A stretch of DNA of 64,000 nucleotides from an uncultured Actinomycetes bacterium (GCA_963725965.1 CAVSAK010000009.1:78290-142289); one strand, 5' to 3'. Positions 181 to 57,720 are shown, counted from the first letter of the stretch. Numbers and translations: made by a program. The notes: generated by a model not told the origin, from the sequence alone.

Positions 181-1218
181 ATGCTGGAAACAGTGCAGCT
201 GAGCGAACGGCAGCAGGCGGTCCTGCGTCGAGTCGTCGAGGAGTTCGTCGGTACCGGACAGCCGGTGGGATCGAAGACGCTCGTCGAGCGTTCCGACCTA
301 CGCGTCTCGCCGTCGACCGTCCGCGCAGCGCTCGCGGAGCTCGAGAATCTCGGGCTGCTCACGCATCCGCACACGTCGGCGGGGCGCGTGCCGACCGAGC
401 GCGGTTACCGCTACTACGCCGACGAGTTGCTCGGCCGACTCGAGCCGCAGCCGGCCGCGTTCCCGCTCGACCTCACGTCGACGAGCACCGAGATCGAGTC
501 GGCTCTGCAAGCGACGACCGAAATGCTCTCACAGGTCACGCGGCTGCTCGCCCTCGTCTCGGCGCCGCCGCTCGAGGCGACCCACGTACGACACGTGGAG
601 GTGCTGCTCCTGCAGCCGCAACTGGTGATGGTCGTCGTCATCACGTCCGCCGGCGGCGTGTCGAAGCGGCTCTTCCACTTCGACGAACCGGTCGACGCCG
701 GAATCGCGCAGTGGGCGAACGACTACCTGAACGAGGCTGTTGCCGGCCTCCAACTCGGTACCGGGCTGCTCCGTCGACGCTTCGAGGAGGTCGGGCTCAG
801 CCCCAACGAGCGTGCATTTCTTGCCGCTCTCTGGCCGGCGTTCACGGAACTCGTCTCGGCCGAGCAGCGACTGTATGTGGGCGGCGCAGCCGATCTCCTC
901 GGCGAAGTCCGCGCGGAGGAGCTCGACGCGTACCGGAGCCTGTTCGAGCTCGTCGAGCGCCGGGCCGACCTGCTCGACGTGCTTGGAGAACCGAGCGCCT
1001 CGCGCCGTCCGTTCGTCCGCCTCGGACACGAGCTCGAGCACCCCGCCCTGGCCGAGATCGCGCTCGTCGGAGCGTGCTACGGGCTCGTGCACCGCGCGCT
1101 CGGTGCGGTCAGCCTCGTCGGCCCTGTCCGGATGGACTACGAGAAGGCGCTCGGCGCCGTGCGCTCGGCCGCGCTCGAGCTGTCGCGCTTCGTCGAGTCG
1201 ATCTACGACGAGGCCTGA
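181..1218 (+). CDS. hrcA: Heat-inducible transcription repressor HrcA
   Basis: 345-aa ORF. The N-terminal wHTH LSERQQAVLRRVVEEFVGTGQPVGSKTL...VSPSTVRAALAELENLGLLTHPHTSAGRVPTERGYRYY is a classic HrcA signature. dnaJ follows. Confidence 0.95.
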   Translation: MLETVQLSERQQAVLRRVVEEFVGTGQPVGSKTLVERSDLRVSPSTVRAALAELENLGLLTHPHTSAGRVPTERGYRYYADELLGRLEPQPAAFPLDLTSTSTEIESALQATTEMLSQVTRLLALVSAPPLEATHVRHVEVLLLQPQLVMVVVITSAGGVSKRLFHFDEPVDAGIAQWANDYLNEAVAGLQLGTGLLRRRFEEVGLSPNERAFLAALWPAFTELVSAEQRLYVGGAADLLGEVRAEELDAYRSLFELVERRADLLDVLGEPSASRRPFVRLGHELEHPALAEIALVGACYGLVHRALGAVSLVGPVRMDYEKALGAVRSAALELSRFVESIYDEA

Positions 1219-1266
1219 GCCGCCACGCGACCTCGGCGGCAGACGCCGACGCTACATTCCGAACAG

Positions 1267-2391
1267 GTGGCGACCACAGACCGGGATTACTACGAGCTGC
1301 TCGGAGTCGGGCGCGAGGCGAGCGAAGGCCAGATCAAGCGCGCCTTCCGGCAGCTCGCGCGCGAGCTTCATCCCGACGTGTCCGACGCGCCGGATGCGCA
1401 CGAGCGCTTCCGTGAGGTCGTCGAGGCGTATGAGGTTCTGTCGAAGACCGAGACGCGCGATCTCTACGACCGCTACGGTCACGCGGGTCTGCGGAGCGGC
1501 GGCTTCCAGGCGGGGCACGTCGACTTCGGCAACCTCGCCGACCTCTTCTCGGCGTTCTTCGGAGACGACGTCATGTTCGGCGGCCGCGCCGGGAGCCGGC
1601 GCGCACGCGGAGCCGACCTCGCCGCGACGGTCGAGATCGACCTCGTCGAGGCCGCGCACGGTGTCACGCGCGAGGTGCCGTACGAGGTCGCGGTGACGTG
1701 CGCGCACTGCGAAGGGAACGGAGCGGAACCGGGCAGCGAGATCAGCGTGTGCACGACGTGCGGCGGCGCCGGGCGGCTGCAGCAGGTGAGTCGGAGCGTC
1801 TTCGGCGAGTTCGTCCGCACGCAGACGTGCCCGACGTGCTCGGGCTCCGGGCGACAGATCGAGCAGCCGTGCTCGGAATGCCACGGCGCAGGGCGCGTCG
1901 TCGAGGAGCGGACGCTCTCGGTCGAGATCCCGCCGGGCATCCACCACGGTCAGCAGATCCGCCACAGCGGAGAGGGACACGCCGGGGTTGTCGGCGGGCG
2001 GGCGGGCGACGTCTACGTAGAGGTGCGGATTCGGCCCGACGAGCGGTTCGTGCGGGAAGGAGACGACATCTACACGACCGTCGCGCTGACCTTCACGCAG
2101 GCCGCGCTCGGCGCGACCGTGGCGGTCCCCACGCTCGAAGGAGAAGAGGAGCTCGAGCTGTCGGCGGGGACGCAGCCGGGTGAGATCGTCGTCCTGCGCG
2201 GGCGCGGCATGCCCGTGCTGCAGGGCCGCGGCCGCGGCGACCAGCGCATCCTCGTCAACGTCCTCGTGCCGAGACACCTGAGCGACGAGCAACGCCGGCT
2301 TCTGCAGGAGTTCGAGGAGCACGCCGACGAGGGCACCTACGGCAAGGCCGACGGTGGGCTCTTCGGCAAGCTCAAGAGCGCCTTCCGCTGA
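1267..2391 (+). CDS. dnaJ: Chaperone DnaJ (hrcA-linked copy)
   Basis: J domain DYYELLGV...HPD, four CxxCxGxG zinc-finger repeats (CAHCEGNG, CTTCGGAG, CPTCSGSG, CSECHGAG), and a C-terminal substrate-binding domain. Confidence 0.95.
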   Translation: MATTDRDYYELLGVGREASEGQIKRAFRQLARELHPDVSDAPDAHERFREVVEAYEVLSKTETRDLYDRYGHAGLRSGGFQAGHVDFGNLADLFSAFFGDDVMFGGRAGSRRARGADLAATVEIDLVEAAHGVTREVPYEVAVTCAHCEGNGAEPGSEISVCTTCGGAGRLQQVSRSVFGEFVRTQTCPTCSGSGRQIEQPCSECHGAGRVVEERTLSVEIPPGIHHGQQIRHSGEGHAGVVGGRAGDVYVEVRIRPDERFVREGDDIYTTVALTFTQAALGATVAVPTLEGEEELELSAGTQPGEIVVLRGRGMPVLQGRGRGDQRILVNVLVPRHLSDEQRRLLQEFEEHADEGTYGKADGGLFGKLKSAFR

Positions 2392-3089
2392 AGCGGTACG
2401 TCGTCGTCGGCGGCGAGCCGGAGCTCGCACTCCTGCTTCACATCTTCCCGGAGGGCGTCGAGGAGCTCGACGGCGCCTACGGCGTCTACGCCGACGAGCC
2501 GCCGCTCGGCTTCGACGTCGTGACCGTCGACGACGTGGCGGACGGCTGGGAAGACGGTTGGCGCGCGTTCCACCACGGCGTTCGGGTCGGGACAGTGTGG
2601 GTGGGGCCGCCGTGGGAGGAGGCTCAGGCTCCGGCCGATTCGATCGCGCTGGTCATCGATCCGGGCCGCGCCTTCGGCACCGGCGCGCATGCCACGACGC
2701 GGCTCTGCCTCGAGCTCCTGCAGAAGGTCGAGCCGGCGAGCTTGCTCGACGTCGGCTGCGGCTCGGGCGTCCTGTCCGTCGCCGCGGCGAAGCTCGGCTT
2801 CGAGCCGGTGCATGCCGTCGACATCGACGAGGTGGCGCTCGAGACGACTCGCGCGAATGCAGCGGCGAACGGCGTCGTCGTCGACGTCGGGTCCGAGCTC
2901 GCGCCAGCGAGCCTGGCCGTGATGAATATCGCGCTCGACGTCGTCGAAGGGATGCTCCCGGAGCTCCCCGTCGCGCGGGCCATCACCTCGGGCTACCTGG
3001 AGCGTGACGAGCCGCGCGTCCACGGGTGGCACCGGGTCCGGCGAAACCTTCGCGACGGCTGGGCGGCCGACCTGCTCGTTCGCGACTAG
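2388..3089 (+). CDS. prmA: Ribosomal protein L11 methyltransferase PrmA (start non-canonical or uncertain)
   Basis: Motifs GRAFGTGAHATTRLCLELL and LLDVGCGSGVLSVAAAKLG. The PrmA-like N-terminal domain (KRYVVVGGEPELALLLHIFPEGVEEL...WEDGWRAFHH) lies upstream of the first canonical start at 2520. The only candidate start is CTG 2388 inside a CTGA overlap with the dnaJ stop. Confidence 0.8.
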   Translation: MKRYVVVGGEPELALLLHIFPEGVEELDGAYGVYADEPPLGFDVVTVDDVADGWEDGWRAFHHGVRVGTVWVGPPWEEAQAPADSIALVIDPGRAFGTGAHATTRLCLELLQKVEPASLLDVGCGSGVLSVAAAKLGFEPVHAVDIDEVALETTRANAAANGVVVDVGSELAPASLAVMNIALDVVEGMLPELPVARAITSGYLERDEPRVHGWHRVRRNLRDGWAADLLVRD

Positions 3090-3158
3090 TCCTCGGAAAG
3101 CGCGTCGGGCGGGCCGAGCAGGAGCTCTCGCCTCCCGTAGCTGATTACCATCGCGGCG

Positions 3159-4355
3159 ATGGCGAGCTTCTCGGTCCGCTTCCTCGGCTGCAAGGTCTCG
3201 CACGTCGACGCGCACGCGGTGCGCGAGCGGCTGCTCGCGGACGGACACGAGGAGCGTGACTGTGCCGACGTGGTCGTCGTGAACACGTGCTGCGTCACGC
3301 ACGAAGCGGTTGCGAAGTCGCGCAAGGAGGCGGCTCGCGCGGCGCGTAGACACCGGCGGGTCTACGTCACCGGGTGCGGCGCGAACCTCGCCGGGGATGC
3401 CTTTTCCGGTTTGCCCGACAACGTCGTGGTCGTCGCGCGCCGGAGCGAGGAGACGCCGGAGTTCGTCGCCGGCGACGTCGGGGCGATCGGCTGCGTCCAG
3501 GCGGACGCCCGCCTCGACCGGGTCCGCGCGTTCGTCAAGGTGCAGGACGGCTGCTCGTTCTCGTGCCGCTTCTGCGTGATCCCACTCGTCCGCGGCGCAT
3601 CGCGCAGCCGTCCGGCCGAGGCCGTGCTCACCGAGATCCGTCGCCGGATCGCCCAGGGGCACCGCGAGGTCGTCCTCACCGGCATCAACCTCGGCTGCTA
3701 CCGCGACCGCGCCGCCGGCTACCGCCTGTCCCACCTCGTCCGCGAAGCGGGCGCGGCACCTGGGCTCGAGCGGCTGCGCCTCTCCTCGATCGAGATCAAC
3801 CACGTCGACGACGAGCTCGTCCGCGCGTTGCGCGAGACGCCGACTGCGAGCCGCCACCTACACGTGCCGCTCCAGTCGGGCGACGACGCCGTCCTGCGCG
3901 CGATGGGTCGCCGCTATTCCGTCGGCACGTACCTCCGCCGGCTCGAGCCGCTGTGCGCCGACTTCAACCTCACGAGCGACGTCATCGTCGGCTTTCCGAC
4001 CGAGGACGGGCGGGCTTTCGAGAACACGCTCCGCGTGGTGGGCGAGGCCGGGCTGACGAAGGTGCACGTCTTCCCTTACTCGCCGCGCCCGGGAACCGGC
4101 ACCGCTGCCGACGACCCGGTGTCGCCGGCGACGAAGAAGGAGCGGAGCGCACGGCTGCGCGCGGCGTCTCACGCGGCCTGCCTCGTCCACTGGCGCTCGA
4201 AGGTCGGTCGCGACGACGTGGTGCTCGTCGACCGCCCGGGTCGCGGCTACGGCGACGACTACTCCCCGTGGCTCGTCCCGGATTCGGCCCCGCTCGGCGA
4301 ACTCGTCGGCGTTCGGGGCGCCGCCGTCTCGGAAGAAGGGATCGTGGCGGCGTGA
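3159..4355 (+). CDS. mtaB: Radical SAM methylthiotransferase, MtaB-like (MiaB/RimO family)
   Basis: N-terminal MTTase domain (FLGCKVSHVD...VVVNTCCVTHEA), radical SAM CSFSCRFC box, and position after prmA as in the yqeV/mtaB synteny. Confidence 0.8.
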   Translation: MASFSVRFLGCKVSHVDAHAVRERLLADGHEERDCADVVVVNTCCVTHEAVAKSRKEAARAARRHRRVYVTGCGANLAGDAFSGLPDNVVVVARRSEETPEFVAGDVGAIGCVQADARLDRVRAFVKVQDGCSFSCRFCVIPLVRGASRSRPAEAVLTEIRRRIAQGHREVVLTGINLGCYRDRAAGYRLSHLVREAGAAPGLERLRLSSIEINHVDDELVRALRETPTASRHLHVPLQSGDDAVLRAMGRRYSVGTYLRRLEPLCADFNLTSDVIVGFPTEDGRAFENTLRVVGEAGLTKVHVFPYSPRPGTGTAADDPVSPATKKERSARLRAASHAACLVHWRSKVGRDDVVLVDRPGRGYGDDYSPWLVPDSAPLGELVGVRGAAVSEEGIVAA

Positions 4356-27605: not shown

Positions 27606-28175
27606 ATGAAGCGACCGCTCGCGGTCGCGCTCACGGGCGGCATCGCGGCCGGCAAGAGCGAGGCTCTCGGCGCGTTCGCGCGGCACGGCGCCGCCGTGAT
27701 CTCGAGCGACGACGTCGTCCACCGCCTCTACCGCGAGGACGAGGCGCTGCAAGCGGCTCTTCGCGATCGGTGGGGCGAACGCGCCTTCCGCGACGGCGAG
27801 GTCGACCGGGAGGAGATCGGCCGGATCGTCTTCGCCGACCGCGCCGAGCTCGCCTGGCTCGAGTCCGAGCTGCATCCGCGCGTCCGGGCGGTCACCGACG
27901 CGTGGCTCGCCAAACAGTCGGCCGATGTCACAGTCGCCGAGATCCCGCTCCTCTTCGAGACCGGCGGCGAGAGGCGGTTCGATCGCGTCGTCGTCGTCAC
28001 CGCACCGCCCGAAGTGAGGGAAGCGCGGCGCGGCGCCCTCGCCGGGAGGGAGGATCGGCTGGTACCCGAAGAGGAGAAAGTGCGGCGAGCGGACTTCTCC
28101 TACGTGAACGACGGCTCGCTGGAGGAGCTCGACGCCTGGGTCGCAGGCGTGCTGGAGGAGCTACGACACTCCTGA
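27606..28175 (+). CDS. coaE: Dephospho-CoA kinase
   Basis: P-loop LTGGIAAGKS. Follows rpsA as in actinobacterial synteny. Confidence 0.9.
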   Translation: MKRPLAVALTGGIAAGKSEALGAFARHGAAVISSDDVVHRLYREDEALQAALRDRWGERAFRDGEVDREEIGRIVFADRAELAWLESELHPRVRAVTDAWLAKQSADVTVAEIPLLFETGGERRFDRVVVVTAPPEVREARRGALAGREDRLVPEEEKVRRADFSYVNDGSLEELDAWVAGVLEELRHS

Positions 28176-28720
28176 GGCGATGGATCGTCGTCGGAGCCGT
28201 CGCTCTCCTGGCGGTGGGCGCGTTCGCATACCTCCAGCGGACCGAGCCGCCGTGGTACGAGCGCCTCTGGTACCCGCTCCACTATTCGACAATCGTCCGC
28301 GTCCACGCCGACGAGAACCAGATCGATCCAGCGCTCCTCGCGGCCGTGATCGAGACCGAGAGCAAGTTCGACCCGACCGCGGAGTCCGACGCCGGCGCCG
28401 TGGGCCTGATGCAGCTGACGCCGACCACGGCGAAGGGCATCGCACAGGCGACCGGCGGCAGCCGTTTCCGCGTCTCCGACCTGACCGACCCCGACATCAA
28501 CGTCCGCTACGGCGCGTGGTACCTCCGCCACCTACTCGACCGTTACGACCAGGACGAACGGCTCGCGCTTGCCGCCTACAACGCCGGCGAGGACAACGTC
28601 GACCGCTGGGAGCGGGAGCACGTCGGGATCCAGTTCGACGAGACGCGCGACTACGTCGACAAGGTCGAGCGCCTGAAGAAGATCTACCGCCACGCATACG
28701 CGTCCCAACTCGGGTACTGA
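28172..28720 (+). CDS. Membrane-anchored lytic transglycosylase (SLT domain), start non-canonical or uncertain
   Basis: AVIETESKFDP, GLMQLTP and AAYNAG. The TM anchor RRWIVVGAVALLAVGAFAYL lies upstream of the first canonical in-frame start (GTG 28214). CTG 28172 lies in a CTGA overlap with the coaE stop. Confidence 0.8.
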   Translation: MRRWIVVGAVALLAVGAFAYLQRTEPPWYERLWYPLHYSTIVRVHADENQIDPALLAAVIETESKFDPTAESDAGAVGLMQLTPTTAKGIAQATGGSRFRVSDLTDPDINVRYGAWYLRHLLDRYDQDERLALAAYNAGEDNVDRWEREHVGIQFDETRDYVDKVERLKKIYRHAYASQLGY

Positions 28721-41550: not shown

Positions 41551-42452
41551 TCCTCGCCGGTCCGGGTCGGAGCGCCCTCGAATTCCGCCTGCTCCTCTTC
41601 GGGCATCGCGTACGTGTGGCGCTCCTCCGGGAAGGCACCGGTCCGCACCTCCTCGGCGAACCGGGACAGCGCCTCCACGATCGCCTCGCCCAGCTCGGCG
41701 TACCGCTTGACGAAGCGCGGCGCCCGGCCCTCGTAGAAGCCGAGCATGTCGTGCCAGACGAGCACCTGCCCGTCCGTCGCCGCGCCCGCGCCGATGCCGA
41801 TCGTCGGCACCGTGAGCGCCCCCGTCGCGGCGCGCCCGACGGCAGGAGGAACGGCCTCGAGCACGATCGCGAAGCAGCCGGCCGCCTCGAGCGCGAGTGC
41901 ATCCTCAACCAGCTGCCGGGCGCGCTCGGCCGTCCTCCCCTGCGCCTTGAAGCCGCCGAGCACCGTCGCGGTCTGCGGCGTCAGCCCCACGTGCCCCATG
42001 ACGGGAATCCCGGCTCCCACGATCGCCCGCGCCCGCGCGACCGAGGTCCCGCCGCGCTCGAGCTTGACCGCGTCCGCGCCGCCCTCCTTCACGAGGCGCA
42101 CCGCGTTGTGCACCGCCTGCTCGTCCGACTCCTCGTACGAGCCGAAGGGCATGTCCGCGATCACGAGGGGCCGTTTCGCTCCGCGCGTCACCCACTGGGT
42201 CATGAACACGATCTCGTCGAGGGACACCGGGACGGTCGATTCCCGGCCGTGGACGACCATTCCCGACGAGTCCCCCACCAGGATCAGGTCGACGCCGGCG
42301 GCATCGGCGAGACGCCCGCTTGGCGCGTCGTACGCGGTGACCATCACGATCTTGTCGCCGCGCCGCTTCATCTCGGCGAGCTCCGGAAGAGGCAGCTTGC
42401 CGGCCGTCCAGGAGGCATAGCGCGTGGGCTTCGGCTTCGGGTCGTCGCTCAT
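41547..42452 (-). CDS. panB: 3-methyl-2-oxobutanoate hydroxymethyltransferase
   Basis: KIVMVTAYDAPSGRLADAAGVDLILVGDSSGMVVHG, ADMPFGSY, and GADAVKLEGG-like KLERGG. Confidence 0.95.
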   Translation of the reverse strand: MSDDPKPKPTRYASWTAGKLPLPELAEMKRRGDKIVMVTAYDAPSGRLADAAGVDLILVGDSSGMVVHGRESTVPVSLDEIVFMTQWVTRGAKRPLVIADMPFGSYEESDEQAVHNAVRLVKEGGADAVKLERGGTSVARARAIVGAGIPVMGHVGLTPQTATVLGGFKAQGRTAERARQLVEDALALEAAGCFAIVLEAVPPAVGRAATGALTVPTIGIGAGAATDGQVLVWHDMLGFYEGRAPRFVKRYAELGEAIVEALSRFAEEVRTGAFPEERHTYAMPEEEQAEFEGAPTRTGED

Positions 42453-43213
42453 GTGAGCTCTCCTTCCAGGAGGACGTTGTCGATCAGGCGGGTGGAGCCG
42501 ACGCGGATCGCGGCGGCGAGAACCTTTGCGTCGCCCAGGTCGAGCACCTCGACGTACTCGGGCTCGAGGCCGTTGAGCGAGGCGCGCGCCGCGGCGGCGG
42601 GATCCGTACTCGCGACGGCTTCGCGCAGTGCACGCGGCAGCGCGAGTGCGCGCTCGCGCTCGTCGGGGGAGAGGTGGACGTTGCGGGACGAGTGCGCGAG
42701 CCCGTCGGGGTCGCGCACGGTCGGGACAACGCGAATCTCCACGGCCACATTCAGGTCCCGGACGAGGCGCCGGGCGACCGCAACCTGCTGTGCGTCCTTC
42801 TGGCCGAAGTACGCGCGCTCGGGCCGGACGAGGTTGAACAGCTTCAGGCAGACGGTCGCGACGCCCCGGAAGTGCCCCGGCCGGGCGACGCCTTCGGCTC
42901 CCGTGTCGTCCGGCTCCACCCAGGTGGCGAAACCGGCCGGGTAGAGCTCGTCGGGCTCCGGCGCGAAGACGACGTCGACGCCTTCCGCGGCTGCGATCTC
43001 GAGATCGCGTTCCTCGTGGCGTGGATAGGCCTCGAGGTCGGTCGGCTCGTCGAACTGGGCCGGGTTGACGAAGAGGGACGCGACGACGCGCTCGTTCTCG
43101 GCCCGCGCCGCGCGGAAGAGCGCGCGGTGGCCGTCGTGCAGCGCTCCCAGCGTCGGCACGAGCCCGGTTCCCGGCGCGGTCTCGAGCGCGGCAATCGTGC
43201 GGAAGATCTTCAT
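42449..43213 (-). CDS. panC: Pantoate-beta-alanine ligase
   Basis: PTLGALHDGHRALF, FVNPAQF, GHFRGVATV, FGQKDAQQ and SSRN. ATGA overlaps on both sides. Confidence 0.93.
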   Translation of the reverse strand: MKIFRTIAALETAPGTGLVPTLGALHDGHRALFRAARAENERVVASLFVNPAQFDEPTDLEAYPRHEERDLEIAAAEGVDVVFAPEPDELYPAGFATWVEPDDTGAEGVARPGHFRGVATVCLKLFNLVRPERAYFGQKDAQQVAVARRLVRDLNVAVEIRVVPTVRDPDGLAHSSRNVHLSPDERERALALPRALREAVASTDPAAAARASLNGLEPEYVEVLDLGDAKVLAAAIRVGSTRLIDNVLLEGELT

Positions 43214-50849: not shown

Positions 50850-51512
50850 AGTGCGGTGCCGGTCGCTGTGGAGACGCTCGAGGAGTACGGGGCGGCGACC
50901 GCGAGCTGCACGCGATGCCGTCTCGCGCAAGGACGGACGCAGGTCGTCTTCGGAGCCGGGAACCCGCGCGCCGACCTGATGTTCGTCGGCGAGGCGCCCG
51001 GCTTCCACGAGGACAAGCAGGGCGTCCCGTTCGTCGGTCAGGCGGGGAAGCTGCTGGAGGGGCTGCTCGCAGGTGTCGATCTCCGCCGTGAGGACGTCTA
51101 CATCGCGAACGTGCTGAAGTGCCGGCCGCCGGGGAATCGCGACCCGCAGCCAGACGAGATCGAGGCGTGCGAGCCGCACCTCTTCCGCCAGATCGAGCTG
51201 ATCGAGCCGAAGGTGATCGCGACGCTCGGCAACTTTGCGACCAAGCTCCTCTCGGGCCGCCCACTCGGCATCACCCGCGTGCACGGCCAGGAGCAGGAGC
51301 TGACGATCGCCGGCCGGAGCGTCCTCCTCTATCCGCTTTACCACCCGGCCGCCGCGCTCTATACGCCGGCGATGCTCAAGGTGCTCGAAGCCGACTTCGC
51401 CCGCCTGCCCGGGCTGCTCGGTGCCGCCGAGCCCGCGCCGCTCGCAGCTCTTCCAGAGCCTGAGCCGGAGCCTGCGGTCGAGGCTCCCGCGGAACAGCTC
51501 GGACTCTTCTAG
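50847..51512 (+). CDS. udg: Uracil-DNA glycosylase, family 4
   Basis: [38 protein letters not shown] and YHPAAAL. ATG 50847 is preferred over GTG 50811, which lies inside the repeat. Confidence 0.88.
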
Positions 51513-52824: not shown

Positions 52825-53285
52825 CGACGATCGAGCTGCGCCGGCTCACGCTCGGCGACCTTCTCGCGATCGAGGAGATCGAGCGCCGCTCCTACCCGAC
52901 GCCGTGGTCGCGCTCGATGTTCGCCGGCGAGCTTGCGAAGCCGAGCTCGATCTGCCTCGGCGCGTTCGAAGCCGAGGGCGAGGACGGCGCGCTCGTCGGC
53001 TACCTCATCGTCTCGCGCTACGTCGACGCATGGCACGTGATGAACGTCGCCGTCGACCCGGATCACCGCGGCCGCGGCGTCGGGACGATGCTCCTCGAGC
53101 GGCTCTTCGACCTCACGGCCCACGACGCCCGCCGCGGCTACACGCTCGAGGTTCGGGTCTCGAACCGGAAGGCGATCGGCCTCTACGAGCGGCTCGGCTT
53201 CCGCTCGCGCGGCCTGCGGCGCGGCTATTACACGGACAACCGCGAGGACGCGCTGATCATGTGGAAGGATCCGGTCGCCCGCTGA
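52821..53285 (+). CDS. rimI: Ribosomal-protein-alanine N-acetyltransferase RimI (GNAT)
   Basis: ATGA overlap. HRGRGVGTMLL and LEVRVSNRKAIGLYERLGF. Confidence 0.85.
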   Translation: MTTIELRRLTLGDLLAIEEIERRSYPTPWSRSMFAGELAKPSSICLGAFEAEGEDGALVGYLIVSRYVDAWHVMNVAVDPDHRGRGVGTMLLERLFDLTAHDARRGYTLEVRVSNRKAIGLYERLGFRSRGLRRGYYTDNREDALIMWKDPVAR

Positions 53286-54299: not shown

Positions 54300-55568
54300 T
54301 TGGCAGTCGCAACGACGTCTCACCTGCGCGAGAACCCGTTCGAGCTGGCGCGCCAGCAGCTGCGGCGCGTGGGAACCACCTTCGAGATCGACTCGAACCT
54401 GATCGCCGTGCTGGGCGAGTGCAAGAAGGCGATCGAGGTCTCGATCCCCGTGAGCATGGACGACGGGTCGACATCCGTGTTCAAGGGCTACCGCGTGACC
54501 CACAACATCGCGCGGGGGCCGTCGAAGGGGGGCATCCGCTACCACCCCGACGTTACGGTGGACGAGGTCAAGGCGCTCGCGATGTGGATGACGTGGAAGT
54601 GCGCGCTGATGGGGATCCCGTTCGGCGGCGCGAAGGGCGGCGTGGTCTGCGACCCGAAGAAGCTGTCGCGCGGCGAGCTCGAGCGGATGACCCGCCGCTT
54701 CACGAGCGAGATCATCAACGAGATCGGGCCGGAGAAGGACATCCCGGCGCCCGACGTCGGCACCGACGGCTCCACGATGGCCTGGATCTTCGACACCTAC
54801 TCGATGAACAAGGGCCACTCGGTGCTCGGCGTGGTGACGGGCAAGCCGCTTGCGATCGGAGGCTCCCTCGGCCGGGTCGAGGCGACCTCCCGCGGCGCGC
54901 TCTTCTGCATCCGCGACGCCGTCGCCAAGCTCGACAAGCGCATCGCAGGGATGAAGGTCGCCGTCGAGGGCTTCGGCAACGTCGGCAGCTACCTCGCGCA
55001 CTTCCTCCACCAGGAGGGCGCGCTCGTCGTCGCGATCTCCGACTCGACGACCGCGCTCTACAACCCGAAGGGCATCGACGTCCCGGCCGCCATCGCCTAC
55101 AAGGCCGAGAACCGCACGCTCGTGGGCCTCAAGGATGCCGAGACGATCACCGACGAGGAGCTCCTGCTGCTCGAGTGCGACGTCCTCGCGCCGTGCGCGC
55201 TCGAGCAGGTGATCACCGAGCAGAACGCCGACCAGGTCAAGGCGCCGATCATCTGCGAGGGCGCGAACGGGCCGGTCACCCCGGCGGCCGACGCGATCCT
55301 CGAGGACAAGGGCGTCCTCATCCTCCCCGACGTGCTCGCGAACGCGGGCGGCGTCGTCGTCTCCTACTTCGAGTGGGTGCAGGGCCTCCAGGAGTACTTC
55401 TGGAAGGAGGTCGAGGTGAACGCGAAGCTCAACGACATCATGAGCCGCGCCTTCGACCAGACGTGGGAGACGGCGCAGAGCCGGAAGCTGCCGATGCGGG
55501 TCGCCGCTTACGGCCTCGCCGTGCAGCGCGTCGCCGAAGCAACGGTCACGAGAGGCATCTACCCGTAA
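54300..55568 (+). CDS. gdhA: Glutamate dehydrogenase
   Basis: GPSKGGIRYHP and GIPFGGAKGG. TTG 54300 lies 6 nt after AAAGGAG; the track start TTG 54267 lies in a T-run with no SD. Confidence 0.92.
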   Translation: MAVATTSHLRENPFELARQQLRRVGTTFEIDSNLIAVLGECKKAIEVSIPVSMDDGSTSVFKGYRVTHNIARGPSKGGIRYHPDVTVDEVKALAMWMTWKCALMGIPFGGAKGGVVCDPKKLSRGELERMTRRFTSEIINEIGPEKDIPAPDVGTDGSTMAWIFDTYSMNKGHSVLGVVTGKPLAIGGSLGRVEATSRGALFCIRDAVAKLDKRIAGMKVAVEGFGNVGSYLAHFLHQEGALVVAISDSTTALYNPKGIDVPAAIAYKAENRTLVGLKDAETITDEELLLLECDVLAPCALEQVITEQNADQVKAPIICEGANGPVTPAADAILEDKGVLILPDVLANAGGVVVSYFEWVQGLQEYFWKEVEVNAKLNDIMSRAFDQTWETAQSRKLPMRVAAYGLAVQRVAEATVTRGIYP

Positions 55569-55810
55569 CGGAGGTCGTCCTCTACACCGCGGCGGGCTGC
55601 CATCTCTGCGAGGCGGCCCGGCGCGTCGTCGGTGCCGCACGCGACGAGCTCGGCTTCATCCTGCGGGAGGTCGCGATCGACGGCGATTCCGAGCTCGAGG
55701 CTGCCTACCGCGAGTGGATCCCCGTCGTCGAGATCGACGGCAAGCGGCGCTTCGTCTACTACGTCCATCCCGACGCGCTTAGCAAGGCGGTTGCACAAGC
55801 GGACGCATAA
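55565..55810 (+). CDS. Glutaredoxin-like protein (CxxC), start codon unresolved
   Basis: VVLYTAAGCHLCEAA...WIPVVEIDG...FVYY is a small glutaredoxin/DUF836-like fold. There is no ATG, GTG or TTG in frame near the N-terminus. The frame opens at GTA 55565, which overlaps the gdhA TAA stop. Confidence 0.65.
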   Translation, partial: VTEVVLYTAAGCHLCEAARRVVGAARDELGFILREVAIDGDSELEAAYREWIPVVEIDGKRRFVYYVHPDALSKAVAQADA

Positions 55811-55867: not shown

Positions 55868-56488
55868 GTGGCCGATCGCCTGAACGTCGGCGTCGCCGCC
55901 CGCCTGTCCCGGTACCTCCAGGTGCTGACGCAGGCGCGCAAGATGGGGAAGACGCGGATCTCCTCGCAGGAGATCGCCGAGTACACGAACATCAACGCGA
56001 CCCAGATCCGCCGCGACCTGTCGAACTTCGGCAAATTCGGCAAGCGCGGGGTCGGCTATTCGATCGAGCTCCTGCTCGACGCGATTCGGAAGATCCTGCG
56101 CACGCAAGGGCAGCACAACGTCGCGCTCGTGGGCGCCGGCCGGCTCGGGCAGGCGATCGCCTCGTCCTCGATTTTCGCGGAGCACGGGATCAACATCGCC
56201 GCTGTCGTGGACACCGACCCAGGGAAGGTCGGGCAGCCGATCGGTCATGTCTCGGTCGAGCCGTACGGCAGGCTCGGCGAGCTCGTGCGCGAGCACAACG
56301 TCGTGGTCGGCGTGCTCGCTGTTCCGGCAGATGCGGCCCAGCCGGCGGCGAACGATCTCGTCTCGGCCGGCGTGCAGATCATCTTCAACTACTCCGAGGC
56401 GCTGCTCGAGACTCCCGCCGACGTGACGGTGCATACGTCGAATCCCGCCGTCGAGCTCCTCTACGCACTGTATTTTCACCTGACCTGA
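55868..56488 (+). CDS. rex: Redox-sensing repressor Rex
   Basis: RLSRYLQVL, ISSQEIAEYTNINATQIRRDLSNFGKFGKRGVGY, and Rossmann VALVGAGRLG. Confidence 0.92.
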   Translation: MADRLNVGVAARLSRYLQVLTQARKMGKTRISSQEIAEYTNINATQIRRDLSNFGKFGKRGVGYSIELLLDAIRKILRTQGQHNVALVGAGRLGQAIASSSIFAEHGINIAAVVDTDPGKVGQPIGHVSVEPYGRLGELVREHNVVVGVLAVPADAAQPAANDLVSAGVQIIFNYSEALLETPADVTVHTSNPAVELLYALYFHLT

Positions 56489-57720
56489 GAATTCTCCTCT
56501 GGCACGGGTACCTGCTCGGCGGCACCGGGTCGAACGTCTATACCCGGGCGCTCGCGCGCGAGTGGAGCCTCGCCGGGCATGACGTCACGGTCGTCTGCCA
56601 AGAGCGGCATCCGGAGGAATACGACCTCGGCGACGCGAGCGTCGTCGTGCCAGAGCTACCCGGCGGCCTGCTTCCCACCTTCGTCCTCGACCGCTACGAG
56701 GGGCTCGAGGCGCGGCTGCTCGTCGACTTCTCCCCGGACGAGCGCGCGGCGTACGTCGCGGCGAACGCCGCCGCGCTGCGCGAGCTTGCGCCCGCGGATC
56801 TCGTCTTCGCGAACCACGTCCTGCTCGGCGCGCCGGTCGGTGCGGCAAGTGGGATGCGCTTCCGCGTCAAGGCGCACGGCTCGGAGCTCGAGTACGCGAT
56901 GCGGGGACGGCCCGACCTTGCGCGCTGGGGCGCGGAGACGCTTGCCCGAGCGGAGGTCGTCTACGCCGGCTCCGAGCACATCCGTATCGTCCTCGACGAG
57001 ATCGTCGGCCACCTCGACCACGTCGCGATCGTCCCCCCGGGAGTCGACGTCGAGGCATTCCGGCCGGAGCCTCGTGAGGAGGCGCTTGCGGCGCTGCTCG
57101 AGGAAGCTCGCGCCGACCCGCCGAATCCTGGGAATCGCGAGGAGCGGCTCCCGGACGAAGGCAATGCCGTGCGGTTCGCCCGCTTCTTCGCCGACGAGCG
57201 GCCGACCGTCGTCTACTTCGGGAAGCTGATCGAAAACAAGGGCGTCCAGGTTCTGCTCGAGGCGCTGGCGGGACTCGACGCTCGAGCCGTGGTCGTCGGG
57301 TTCGGCGACTTCCGGGAGGAGCTCGAGGCCCGCGCACCGCTGGGAACGCTCTTCTGCGGGCCGCTCGAGCACCGCCACCTCCGGCACCTGCTGCCGCTCA
57401 GCGACGTCGCCGTCGTCCCGTCGATCTTCCCCGAGGCGTTCGGCATGGTCGCGGCGGAGGCGGCGGCGGCCGGCGTGCTGCCGGTGGTGTCGGCGCATTC
57501 GGGTCTCGCGGAGGTGGCCGCGGGCATCGGCGAGGAGGTCGGGCCCGAGACGGCAGCGTTGCTGTCCTTTCCCGCCGGGGATGCCGACGCGCTCCGGGAT
57601 CGGTTGGCGGCGATCCTCGAGCTTCCGGGCGAGCGTCGGCGCGAGCTCGGCCTCGCCGCGCGGCGCGCCGTCGAGCGCCGTTGGAGCTGGCGCGTGGTCG
57701 CCGGACAATTGCTCGCGTGA
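56485..57720 (+). CDS. Glycosyltransferase family 4 (GT-B), start non-canonical or uncertain
   Basis: N-terminus RILLWHGYLLGGTGSNVYTRALAREW. C-terminal EAFGMVAAEAAAAG (E-x7-E-like). No ATG, GTG or TTG is available in frame. CTG 56485 lies in a CTGA overlap with the rex stop. Confidence 0.82.
   Translation: MRILLWHGYLLGGTGSNVYTRALAREWSLAGHDVTVVCQERHPEEYDLGDASVVVPELPGGLLPTFVLDRYEGLEARLLVDFSPDERAAYVAANAAALRELAPADLVFANHVLLGAPVGAASGMRFRVKAHGSELEYAMRGRPDLARWGAETLARAEVVYAGSEHIRIVLDEIVGHLDHVAIVPPGVDVEAFRPEPREEALAALLEEARADPPNPGNREERLPDEGNAVRFARFFADERPTVVYFGKLIENKGVQVLLEALAGLDARAVVVGFGDFREELEARAPLGTLFCGPLEHRHLRHLLPLSDVAVVPSIFPEAFGMVAAEAAAAGVLPVVSAHSGLAEVAAGIGEEVGPETAALLSFPAGDADALRDRLAAILELPGERRRELGLAARRAVERRWSWRVVAGQLLA

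Follow-up and report, generated by a model that had tools for sequence, protein, structure and literature searches.

Stop/start overlaps, near-cognate starts and the dnaJ-prmA junction

In bacteria, a four-nucleotide overlap between the stop codon of one gene and the start codon of the next can couple the two by termination-reinitiation (Huber et al., 2019, PMC6728339; reviewed in PMC12548453), and coupling at RTGA overlaps has been described in mycobacteria (PMC4633059). We analyzed a related junction, between dnaJ and the putative ribosomal protein L11 methyltransferase gene prmA, in a 64,000-nucleotide stretch of DNA from an uncultured soil Gaiellaceae bacterium (CAVSAK010000009.1:78290-142289; the whole stretch is referred to as the window). 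The window has 70% G+C and belongs to a metagenome-assembled genome (MAG) of 2.69 Mb in 15 contigs, which we label G000; L- and G-numbers denote loci and genomes of its relatives. The dnaJ-prmA junction shares with ATGA and GTGA coupling its geometry (two bases in common with a TGA stop), its co-directional operon neighbors and the lack of a Shine-Dalgarno (SD) sequence that is often seen in the downstream gene. Its restart codon is instead CTG, which selection appears to preserve even though a single synonymous substitution in dnaJ would replace it with a canonical start. Because the overlap contains CTG rather than a canonical start, we treat the junction as a variant of NTGA coupling instead of an ordinary case.

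CTG is a listed start codon in NCBI translation table 11; the plasmid protein RepA starts at CTG, and infC and pcnB of E. coli start at AUU. Clade-conserved near-cognate starts have been described in Deinococcus-Thermus for rpsL (CTG), dnaA (ATC) and infC (ATA) (Baudet et al., 2010, PMC2830850), those of rpsL and dnaA having been proven by N-terminal proteomics in Deinococcus (PMC2830850). Like prmA, these genes carry a non-canonical codon at the start site of their orthologues, conserve it within a clade and were missed by gene finders. Whereas the Deinococcus-Thermus cases are proven by proteomics and are not described as overlapping a stop codon, the prmA start is proposed from sequence comparison and lies within an overlap. 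Furthermore, the class of CTGA starts to which prmA would belong has about 17 instances in a single genome of 2.7 Mb. In the literature that we searched, a recurrent and conserved CTGA class, its use by housekeeping genes of an actinobacterial family, and purifying selection on the weak first base of a start codon are not described.

The gene order at positions 181-4355, from the list of open reading frames (ORFs) and Pfam matches, is hrcA, dnaJ, prmA and one more co-directional ORF. The dnaJ gene (1267..2391, plus strand; 374 amino acids; Pfam DnaJ, DnaJ_CXXCXGXG and DnaJ_C) has a GTG start and ends in ...GCC TTC CGC TGA, with the stop at 2389-2391. The CTG at 2388-2390 shares its TG with this stop in a 4-nt CTGA overlap (2388..2391, plus strand) between two frames offset by one base. 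The prmA frame extends open from 2184, directly after an in-frame stop at 2181-2183, to 3089, and its first canonical start (ATG, GTG or TTG) is the GTG at 2520..2522. A preliminary description of this DNA had drawn attention to both the missing canonical start and the CTGA overlap, and the sequence and an ORF scan bear it out. With a gene caller based on codon usage and trained on G000, the coding signal of prmA begins exactly at 2388. Read from there, prmA (2388..3089, plus strand) would encode 233 amino acids, with an identity supported by Pfam (PF06325), an AlphaFold model and Foldseek. Its first 44 codons (2388..2519, plus strand), which translate to LKRYVVVGGEPELALLLHIFPEGVEELDGAYGVYADEPPLGFDV, lie ahead of every canonical start. 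Public gene calls begin at GTG 2520 and give a 189-aa product, a start that our analysis indicates is not the real one. Instead, we propose with good confidence that PrmA is translated from CTG 2388, most likely by termination-reinitiation at the UGA of dnaJ.

Conservation of the CTG codon and of its first base

We compared the start codon across 74 species-level Gaiellaceae loci, which were assembled independently in several studies. In 62 of the 74 species, the codon at residue 1 is the CTG of a CTGA, and in three more an in-frame CTGA is present with a 6-nt insertion behind it that keeps the frame and adds two codons. In eight species, a canonical start occupies the site or adjoins it, in the form of TAGTG (L137, L142, L174 and L177), GTGA (L168 and L192) or a TTG five codons upstream (L140 and L145), and two loci (L160 and L191) have ATC after AGGAG, 8 nt past a TAG stop. 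In the sister families of the order (L021, L022, L024 and L027), the homologous codon is the GTG of a GTGA (GTG AAC CGC TAC). Hence, two features expected of a near-cognate start are present: orthologues carry a canonical codon at the homologous site (L021, L022, L024, L027 and L168), and the CTG itself is conserved. The alignment of PrmA orthologues, which had been suggested as a check on the start, therefore supports CTG. Further into the gene, no canonical start is conserved at codons 2-60, where the maximum at any position is 54% of the species.

The C of CTGA is also the third base of the last dnaJ codon (CGC). A G, A or T at this position would still encode arginine in DnaJ and would give prmA a GTG, ATG or TTG start, respectively. 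We counted changes on a FastTree phylogeny of dnaJ (70 species) at 132 four-fold degenerate sites with conserved first two bases. The junction C had no parsimony changes, the lowest value among the 132 sites (median 13, range 0-32), and was C in 65 of the 65 species with a CGN codon, while the adjoining four-fold sites in the DnaJ tail are divided about equally between C and G. We found no bias toward C across the genome that could explain the constraint: C makes up 46% of the bases before TGA and, where the last codon before TGA is CGN, the third base is C in 51%, A in 28% and G in 16% of the cases. We also considered a hairpin (CCGC-UGAA-GCGG, window 2384-2399) with a 4-bp stem and the UGA in its loop as the cause of the constraint and rejected it, because most relatives do not have a matching 3' arm (AGG CGC, AAC CGC and AGA CGG). 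The possible hairpin in the window, with the dnaJ stop in its loop, is thus probably fortuitous. Since the C is invariant, is not explained by a genome-wide preference and cannot be attributed to a hairpin that relatives do not keep, we conclude that the weak CTG start of prmA appears to be maintained by selection and not just tolerated.

The constraint also bears on whether restart at the stop-overlapping codon involves recognition by the initiator tRNA at all, as CTG could be read as leucine or the restart could be insensitive to the codon. Such a restart would accommodate a glutaredoxin-like gene of the window that has GTA on TAA or TAG in 11 species and ATA or GTG in two, an adk gene with ATA on TAA in G015, and 11-12 NTAG/NTAA junctions of G000 that also lack a canonical start. 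However, it predicts that the C of CTGA should drift, yet this base is invariant, and ATGA and GTGA junctions outnumber CTGA starts by about 20:1 even though C precedes TGA more often than any other base. Both observations indicate that codon identity is selected. The tRNA set is also ordinary: ARAGORN finds three CAT tRNAs and one class II tRNA-Leu(CAG), and a special initiator tRNA, which we considered separately, was rejected for this reason. Thus, a restart independent of the codon is unlikely.

Coding sequence ahead of the first canonical start

Codons 2-44 of prmA bear the signature of a selected protein. Between the window and 71 Gaiellaceae species, the proportions of synonymous (pS) and nonsynonymous (pN) differences are 0.31 and 0.049 (pN/pS 0.157), and codons 2-10 alone already give a pN/pS of 0.19. 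As a control, the 20 codons upstream of the CTG yield 0.95 and 0.87 in the two frames, values of no diagnostic use in an ungapped comparison over the variable DnaJ tail. Insertions right behind CTGA stay in frame (6 nt in L003, L125, L129 and L166 and 9 nt in L016). The data place the beginning of coding at codon 1 or 2, at a codon homologous to canonical starts, and prmA shows a further feature of near-cognate starts in having selected coding sequence ahead of every canonical start.

Homology and predicted structure agree with this placement. PrmA residues 39 onwards pair with residues 44 onwards of Thermus thermophilus PrmA, so that residues 1-38 match the N-terminal domain of the Thermus protein. 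The Pfam PF06325 match (E = 5e-39; 134.9 bits against a cut-off of 22) runs from residue 49. An AlphaFold model of the 233-aa protein (30 orthologues) has a mean predicted local distance difference test score (pLDDT) of 88 and forms a strand (residues 2-7), a helix (10-19) and two more strands (25-27 and 30-35) in the N-terminal region. Foldseek matched the whole chain to the PrmA structures 2nxe and 2nxn (E = 2e-16, template modeling score 0.73 and 259 columns for 2nxe_A). The modeled chain has the architecture of PrmA, with an N-terminal domain, a linker and a methyltransferase domain. It would therefore share the two-domain plan of Thermus PrmA (2nxe, 2nxn and 1ufk), in which a small N-terminal domain precedes a class I S-adenosylmethionine (SAM) methyltransferase and touches L11 in the 2nxn complex. 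The two proteins are about 30% identical, and the Gaiellaceae protein differs in its CTG start and in being 20 residues shorter. Taken together, selection, in-frame indels, homology and the structure model indicate that the region 2388-2519 is translated, consistent with the earlier assignment of these 44 codons to the PrmA N-terminal domain.

The same evidence makes it very unlikely that PrmA starts at GTG 2520 and that the N-terminal domain survives upstream only as a 44-codon untranslated relic. In favor of that view, no canonical start precedes GTG 2520 in the frame, the 189-aa form is the one that databases contain, and the Pfam match begins only at residue 49. Such a start would leave PrmA without the N-terminal domain, although purifying selection acts on the codons ahead of it (pN/pS 0.16), which are predicted to fold as the domain that contacts L11 in 2nxn and show in-frame indels right behind CTGA. 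Moreover, the codon homologous to GTG 2520 is GTC in 50, ATC in 10, GTG in 7 and CTC in 5 of 72 species. Orthologues starting at the equivalent of 2520 had been named in the preliminary description as the outcome that would speak against CTG, and with GTG in only 7 of 72 species they are not what the alignment yields.

Proposed initiation at the CTGA overlap

We calculated the pairing of the 17 nt upstream of each start with the 3' end of the 16S rRNA. No SD sequence was detected in this interval ahead of the prmA CTG, where pairing (-2.1 kcal/mol) is at background level; means are -3.5 kcal/mol for random internal positions, -6.6 for ATGA junctions and -5.6 for GTGA junctions. A weak codon that lacks an SD sequence is unlikely to recruit free 30S subunits. 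We infer reinitiation from the missing SD sequence, the weak CUG and the geometry shared with ATGA and GTGA junctions. The ribosome would stay on the mRNA after releasing DnaJ at the UGA, and the initiator tRNA would re-pair with the CUG one base upstream, with a mismatch at the first position as at GUG and UUG and presumably with insertion of formylmethionine. The ribosome would then translate prmA. Because the codon is weak and no SD sequence assists it, PrmA synthesis would be tied to dnaJ translation, and PrmA output would hang almost wholly on it at a low fixed ratio. Low, coupled expression may be the purpose of the arrangement, in which case selection would retain the weak codon.

Several points weigh against initiation at CTG 2388. 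The lineage is uncultured, and use of the codon is deduced from sequence comparison. CUG initiates at about 0.1-3% of the AUG level in E. coli reporters (10.1101/063800) and mycobacterial reporters did not select it as a start, with or without a leader (PMC4633059), and restarts at CUG or CTGA go unmentioned in the two papers on coupling that we searched (PMC6728339 and PMC12548453). About one quarter of the species have a GTG at codon 5 from which prmA could start. This GTG is only a synonymous GTC/GTG variant, and the window does not have it. Finally, the reason for the constraint on the C is our interpretation, of which low, dnaJ-dependent PrmA synthesis would be the simplest form.

Two other leads on initiation were rejected. 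The infC frame has an ordinary TTG candidate and thus gives no sign of altered IF3 control through an unusual infC start. A report on reinitiation and non-canonical codons (PMC4648390) concerns expression of a eukaryotic Shaker-Kv channel and is not applicable here.

No start codon would be needed if ribosomes underwent a programmed -1 frameshift toward the 3' end of dnaJ and made a DnaJ-PrmA fusion. The prmA frame is indeed the -1 frame of dnaJ and is open for 68 codons upstream of the junction. However, the sequence ...GCC TTC CGC TGA contains no slippery heptamer (X XXY YYZ), and the three CTGA junctions of the window have no shift-prone motif in common. Starts in relatives are ordinary: they lie within GTGA or TAGTG, or follow, as ATC, an 8-nt spacer with AGGAG. 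In L185, the frame is closed by a TAG two codons ahead of the CTG, so that translation does not enter from upstream. These observations make a frameshift highly improbable. A sequencing or assembly error that turned ATG or GTG into CTG, an alternative raised in the preliminary description and brought to mind by prmA frameshifts in some related MAGs (G008 and G023), is the least credible explanation of all and is excluded because CTGA is identical in 62 species assembled independently in several studies.

The prmA gene is split by frameshifts in L020 (G008) and at G023:C7:9244-9998, both in MAGs of few contigs and low completeness. These frameshifts are probably indel errors of long reads and call for caution in surveys of missing starts.

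CTGA junctions in the genome and in relatives

We also surveyed G000 for junctions with the stop codon in this phase and a downstream coding boundary within 8 codons. The canonical overlaps number 154-155 ATGA, 197-205 GTGA and 24-25 TTGA (375-385 together, the range reflecting different runs). CTGA in this phase is common by chance, and most of the 115 CTGA junctions have an ATG or GTG adjoining. In 17 of the 115, three of them in the window, there is no canonical start from -20 to +10 codons, a configuration not expected by chance. The genome survey of CTGA junctions that had been proposed alongside the prmA start thus returned further cases. Pairing of the 17 starts with the anti-SD sequence averages -4.0 kcal/mol, which is near background.

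For several genes, the Pfam family profile starts within a few residues of the candidate CTG (adk, hemE, a Bac_transf sugar transferase, rluD, a SpoU methylase and recF), and the profile is placed in the same way relative to the ATC of rpsM and the GTA of the glutaredoxin-like gene. The profile starts further in for uppS (residue 26) and tsaD (residue 22). In adk (L091:1501-1504; G000 contig C3, base 89061), the CTG of a CTGA overlaps the stop codon of the preceding gene (presumably secY) in 10 species of the genus including G000, and the start is ATG or GTG in 8 species, ATA on TAA in G015 and canonical in other families. The start of rpsM (ribosomal protein S13; L091:3262-3264; G000 contig C3, base 90822) is ATC in G000, G022 and G003, 3 nt past the stop of an upstream gene ending in ...KQRQG that is probably rpmJ, and GTG, ATG or TTG elsewhere.

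The apparent CTG start of recF (G000 C4, base 476009, outside the window) lies 6 nt past a TAG that may be the stop of the upstream gene. An in-frame TAG is present three codons upstream, and the SMC_N profile runs from residue 4.

Relative to canonical NTGA junctions, CTGA starts amount to 17/385 (4.4%) in G000 and 3/51 (5.9%) in G012 of the same genus, compared to 3/128 (2.3%) in G032 and 1/150 (0.7%) in G030, two 800-kb samples from sister families in which the numbers are small. We therefore rejected genus specificity: sister families have CTGA starts too, at lower frequency, and the class appears from these counts to be commoner in this genus without being exclusive to it. The preliminary description was right to single out CTG as an unusual start. 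It is not the only near-cognate codon in use, since ATC, ATA and possibly GTA occur as well, nor is it confined to the genus.

Other CTGA junctions in the window

The ATGA and GTGA junctions that had been listed as counterparts of the prmA overlap are all present (4352, 7509, 7883, 9339, 9710, 14250, 17340, 24479, 52821, 57717 and 63287, and 42449-42452 and 43210-43213 on the minus strand). So are two further CTGA junctions, at 28172 and 56485, which behave like that of prmA.

At the first, the CTG precedes a gene for a lytic transglycosylase with an SLT domain (28172..28720, plus strand; Pfam SLT). The TGA (28173-28175) ends an ORF at 27606..28175 (plus strand) that had been called coaE, an identity that is not confirmed; Pfam gave no match to a fragment scanned from 10 codons upstream of its ATG. 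The membrane anchor of the transglycosylase (RRWIVVGAVALLAVGAF) precedes the first canonical start, GTG 28214, and a start at that codon would cut it. The junction (CTG AGG CGA TGG...) is CTGA in most members of the genus, GTGA in L074, TTGA in L077 and L080, and ATG in other families. It has a good SD site (-9.3 kcal/mol).

The second CTGA joins rex, for the redox-sensing repressor (55868..56488, plus strand; start estimated; TGA stop at 56486-56488; Pfam Put_DNA-bind_N and CoA_binding), to a gene for a GT4 glycosyltransferase (56485..57720, plus strand; Pfam Glyco_transf_4 from residue 15). The first canonical start of the glycosyltransferase, GTG 56647, is 54 codons downstream of the CTG. 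The CTG AGA ATT CTC CTC TGG of the window aligns codon for codon with GTG/ATG CGG ATC CTG CTC TGG in about 20 relatives, whose proteins begin with VRILLWHGY or MRILLWHGY, and six other members of the genus also have the CTGA form. Anti-SD pairing at this junction (+0.8 kcal/mol) indicates no site.

Consequences for annotation

Gene finders of the Prodigal type accept only ATG, GTG and TTG as starts. As a result, public proteins lack the N-terminal domain of PrmA, the membrane anchor of the transglycosylase and the first Rossmann strand of the GT4 glycosyltransferase. Exact look-ups in NCBI, ENA, Logan and IMG returned the 189-aa PrmA from this contig and not the 233-aa form, and only a 168-aa transglycosylase and a 357-aa glycosyltransferase, the full-length forms of both being absent. 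The same shortening is expected for about 17 genes per genome in an abundant soil family, with erroneous predictions of domains and localization.

Stop/start overlaps seem to allow the use of a codon with an efficiency of about 1% in E. coli reporters, and the retention of a weak codon at dnaJ-prmA leads to a testable model in which the restart codon sets operon stoichiometry. A broader and more tentative suggestion, which we regard as possible but not probable, is that Gaiellaceae, and probably many GC-rich soil lineages, restart on overlapping or adjacent codons under relaxed rules (CUG, AUA, AUC and perhaps GUA), with selection exploiting the weak codon to attenuate the downstream gene by a fixed amount. 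If so, relaxed restart would define a distinct and systematically unannotated class of initiation sites that covers about 1% of genes, including adk and rpsM.

Further candidate start sites in the window

Three more genes of the window have unusual candidate starts. The tsaD gene has two: the CTG of a CTGA junction (CTG 53282; window 53261-53285) and an in-frame GTG at 53261, seven codons upstream. In a 241-codon gene at 51509 (G000 contig C9, base 129798), the coding signal runs from a CTAG junction, and the first canonical start is 71 codons downstream. The glutaredoxin-like gene (55565-55810; 81 codons) has no ATG, GTG, TTG or CTG anywhere in its frame. Its GTA overlaps the stop of the upstream gene (GTAA), which had been named gdhA, and among the species compared the same codon is ATA in L216 and GTG in L214. 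Because codon 2 of the gene varies among species, the ACG found there can be dismissed as a start. A candidate alternative to initiation at this site would be a -1 slip at TAC CCG TAA.

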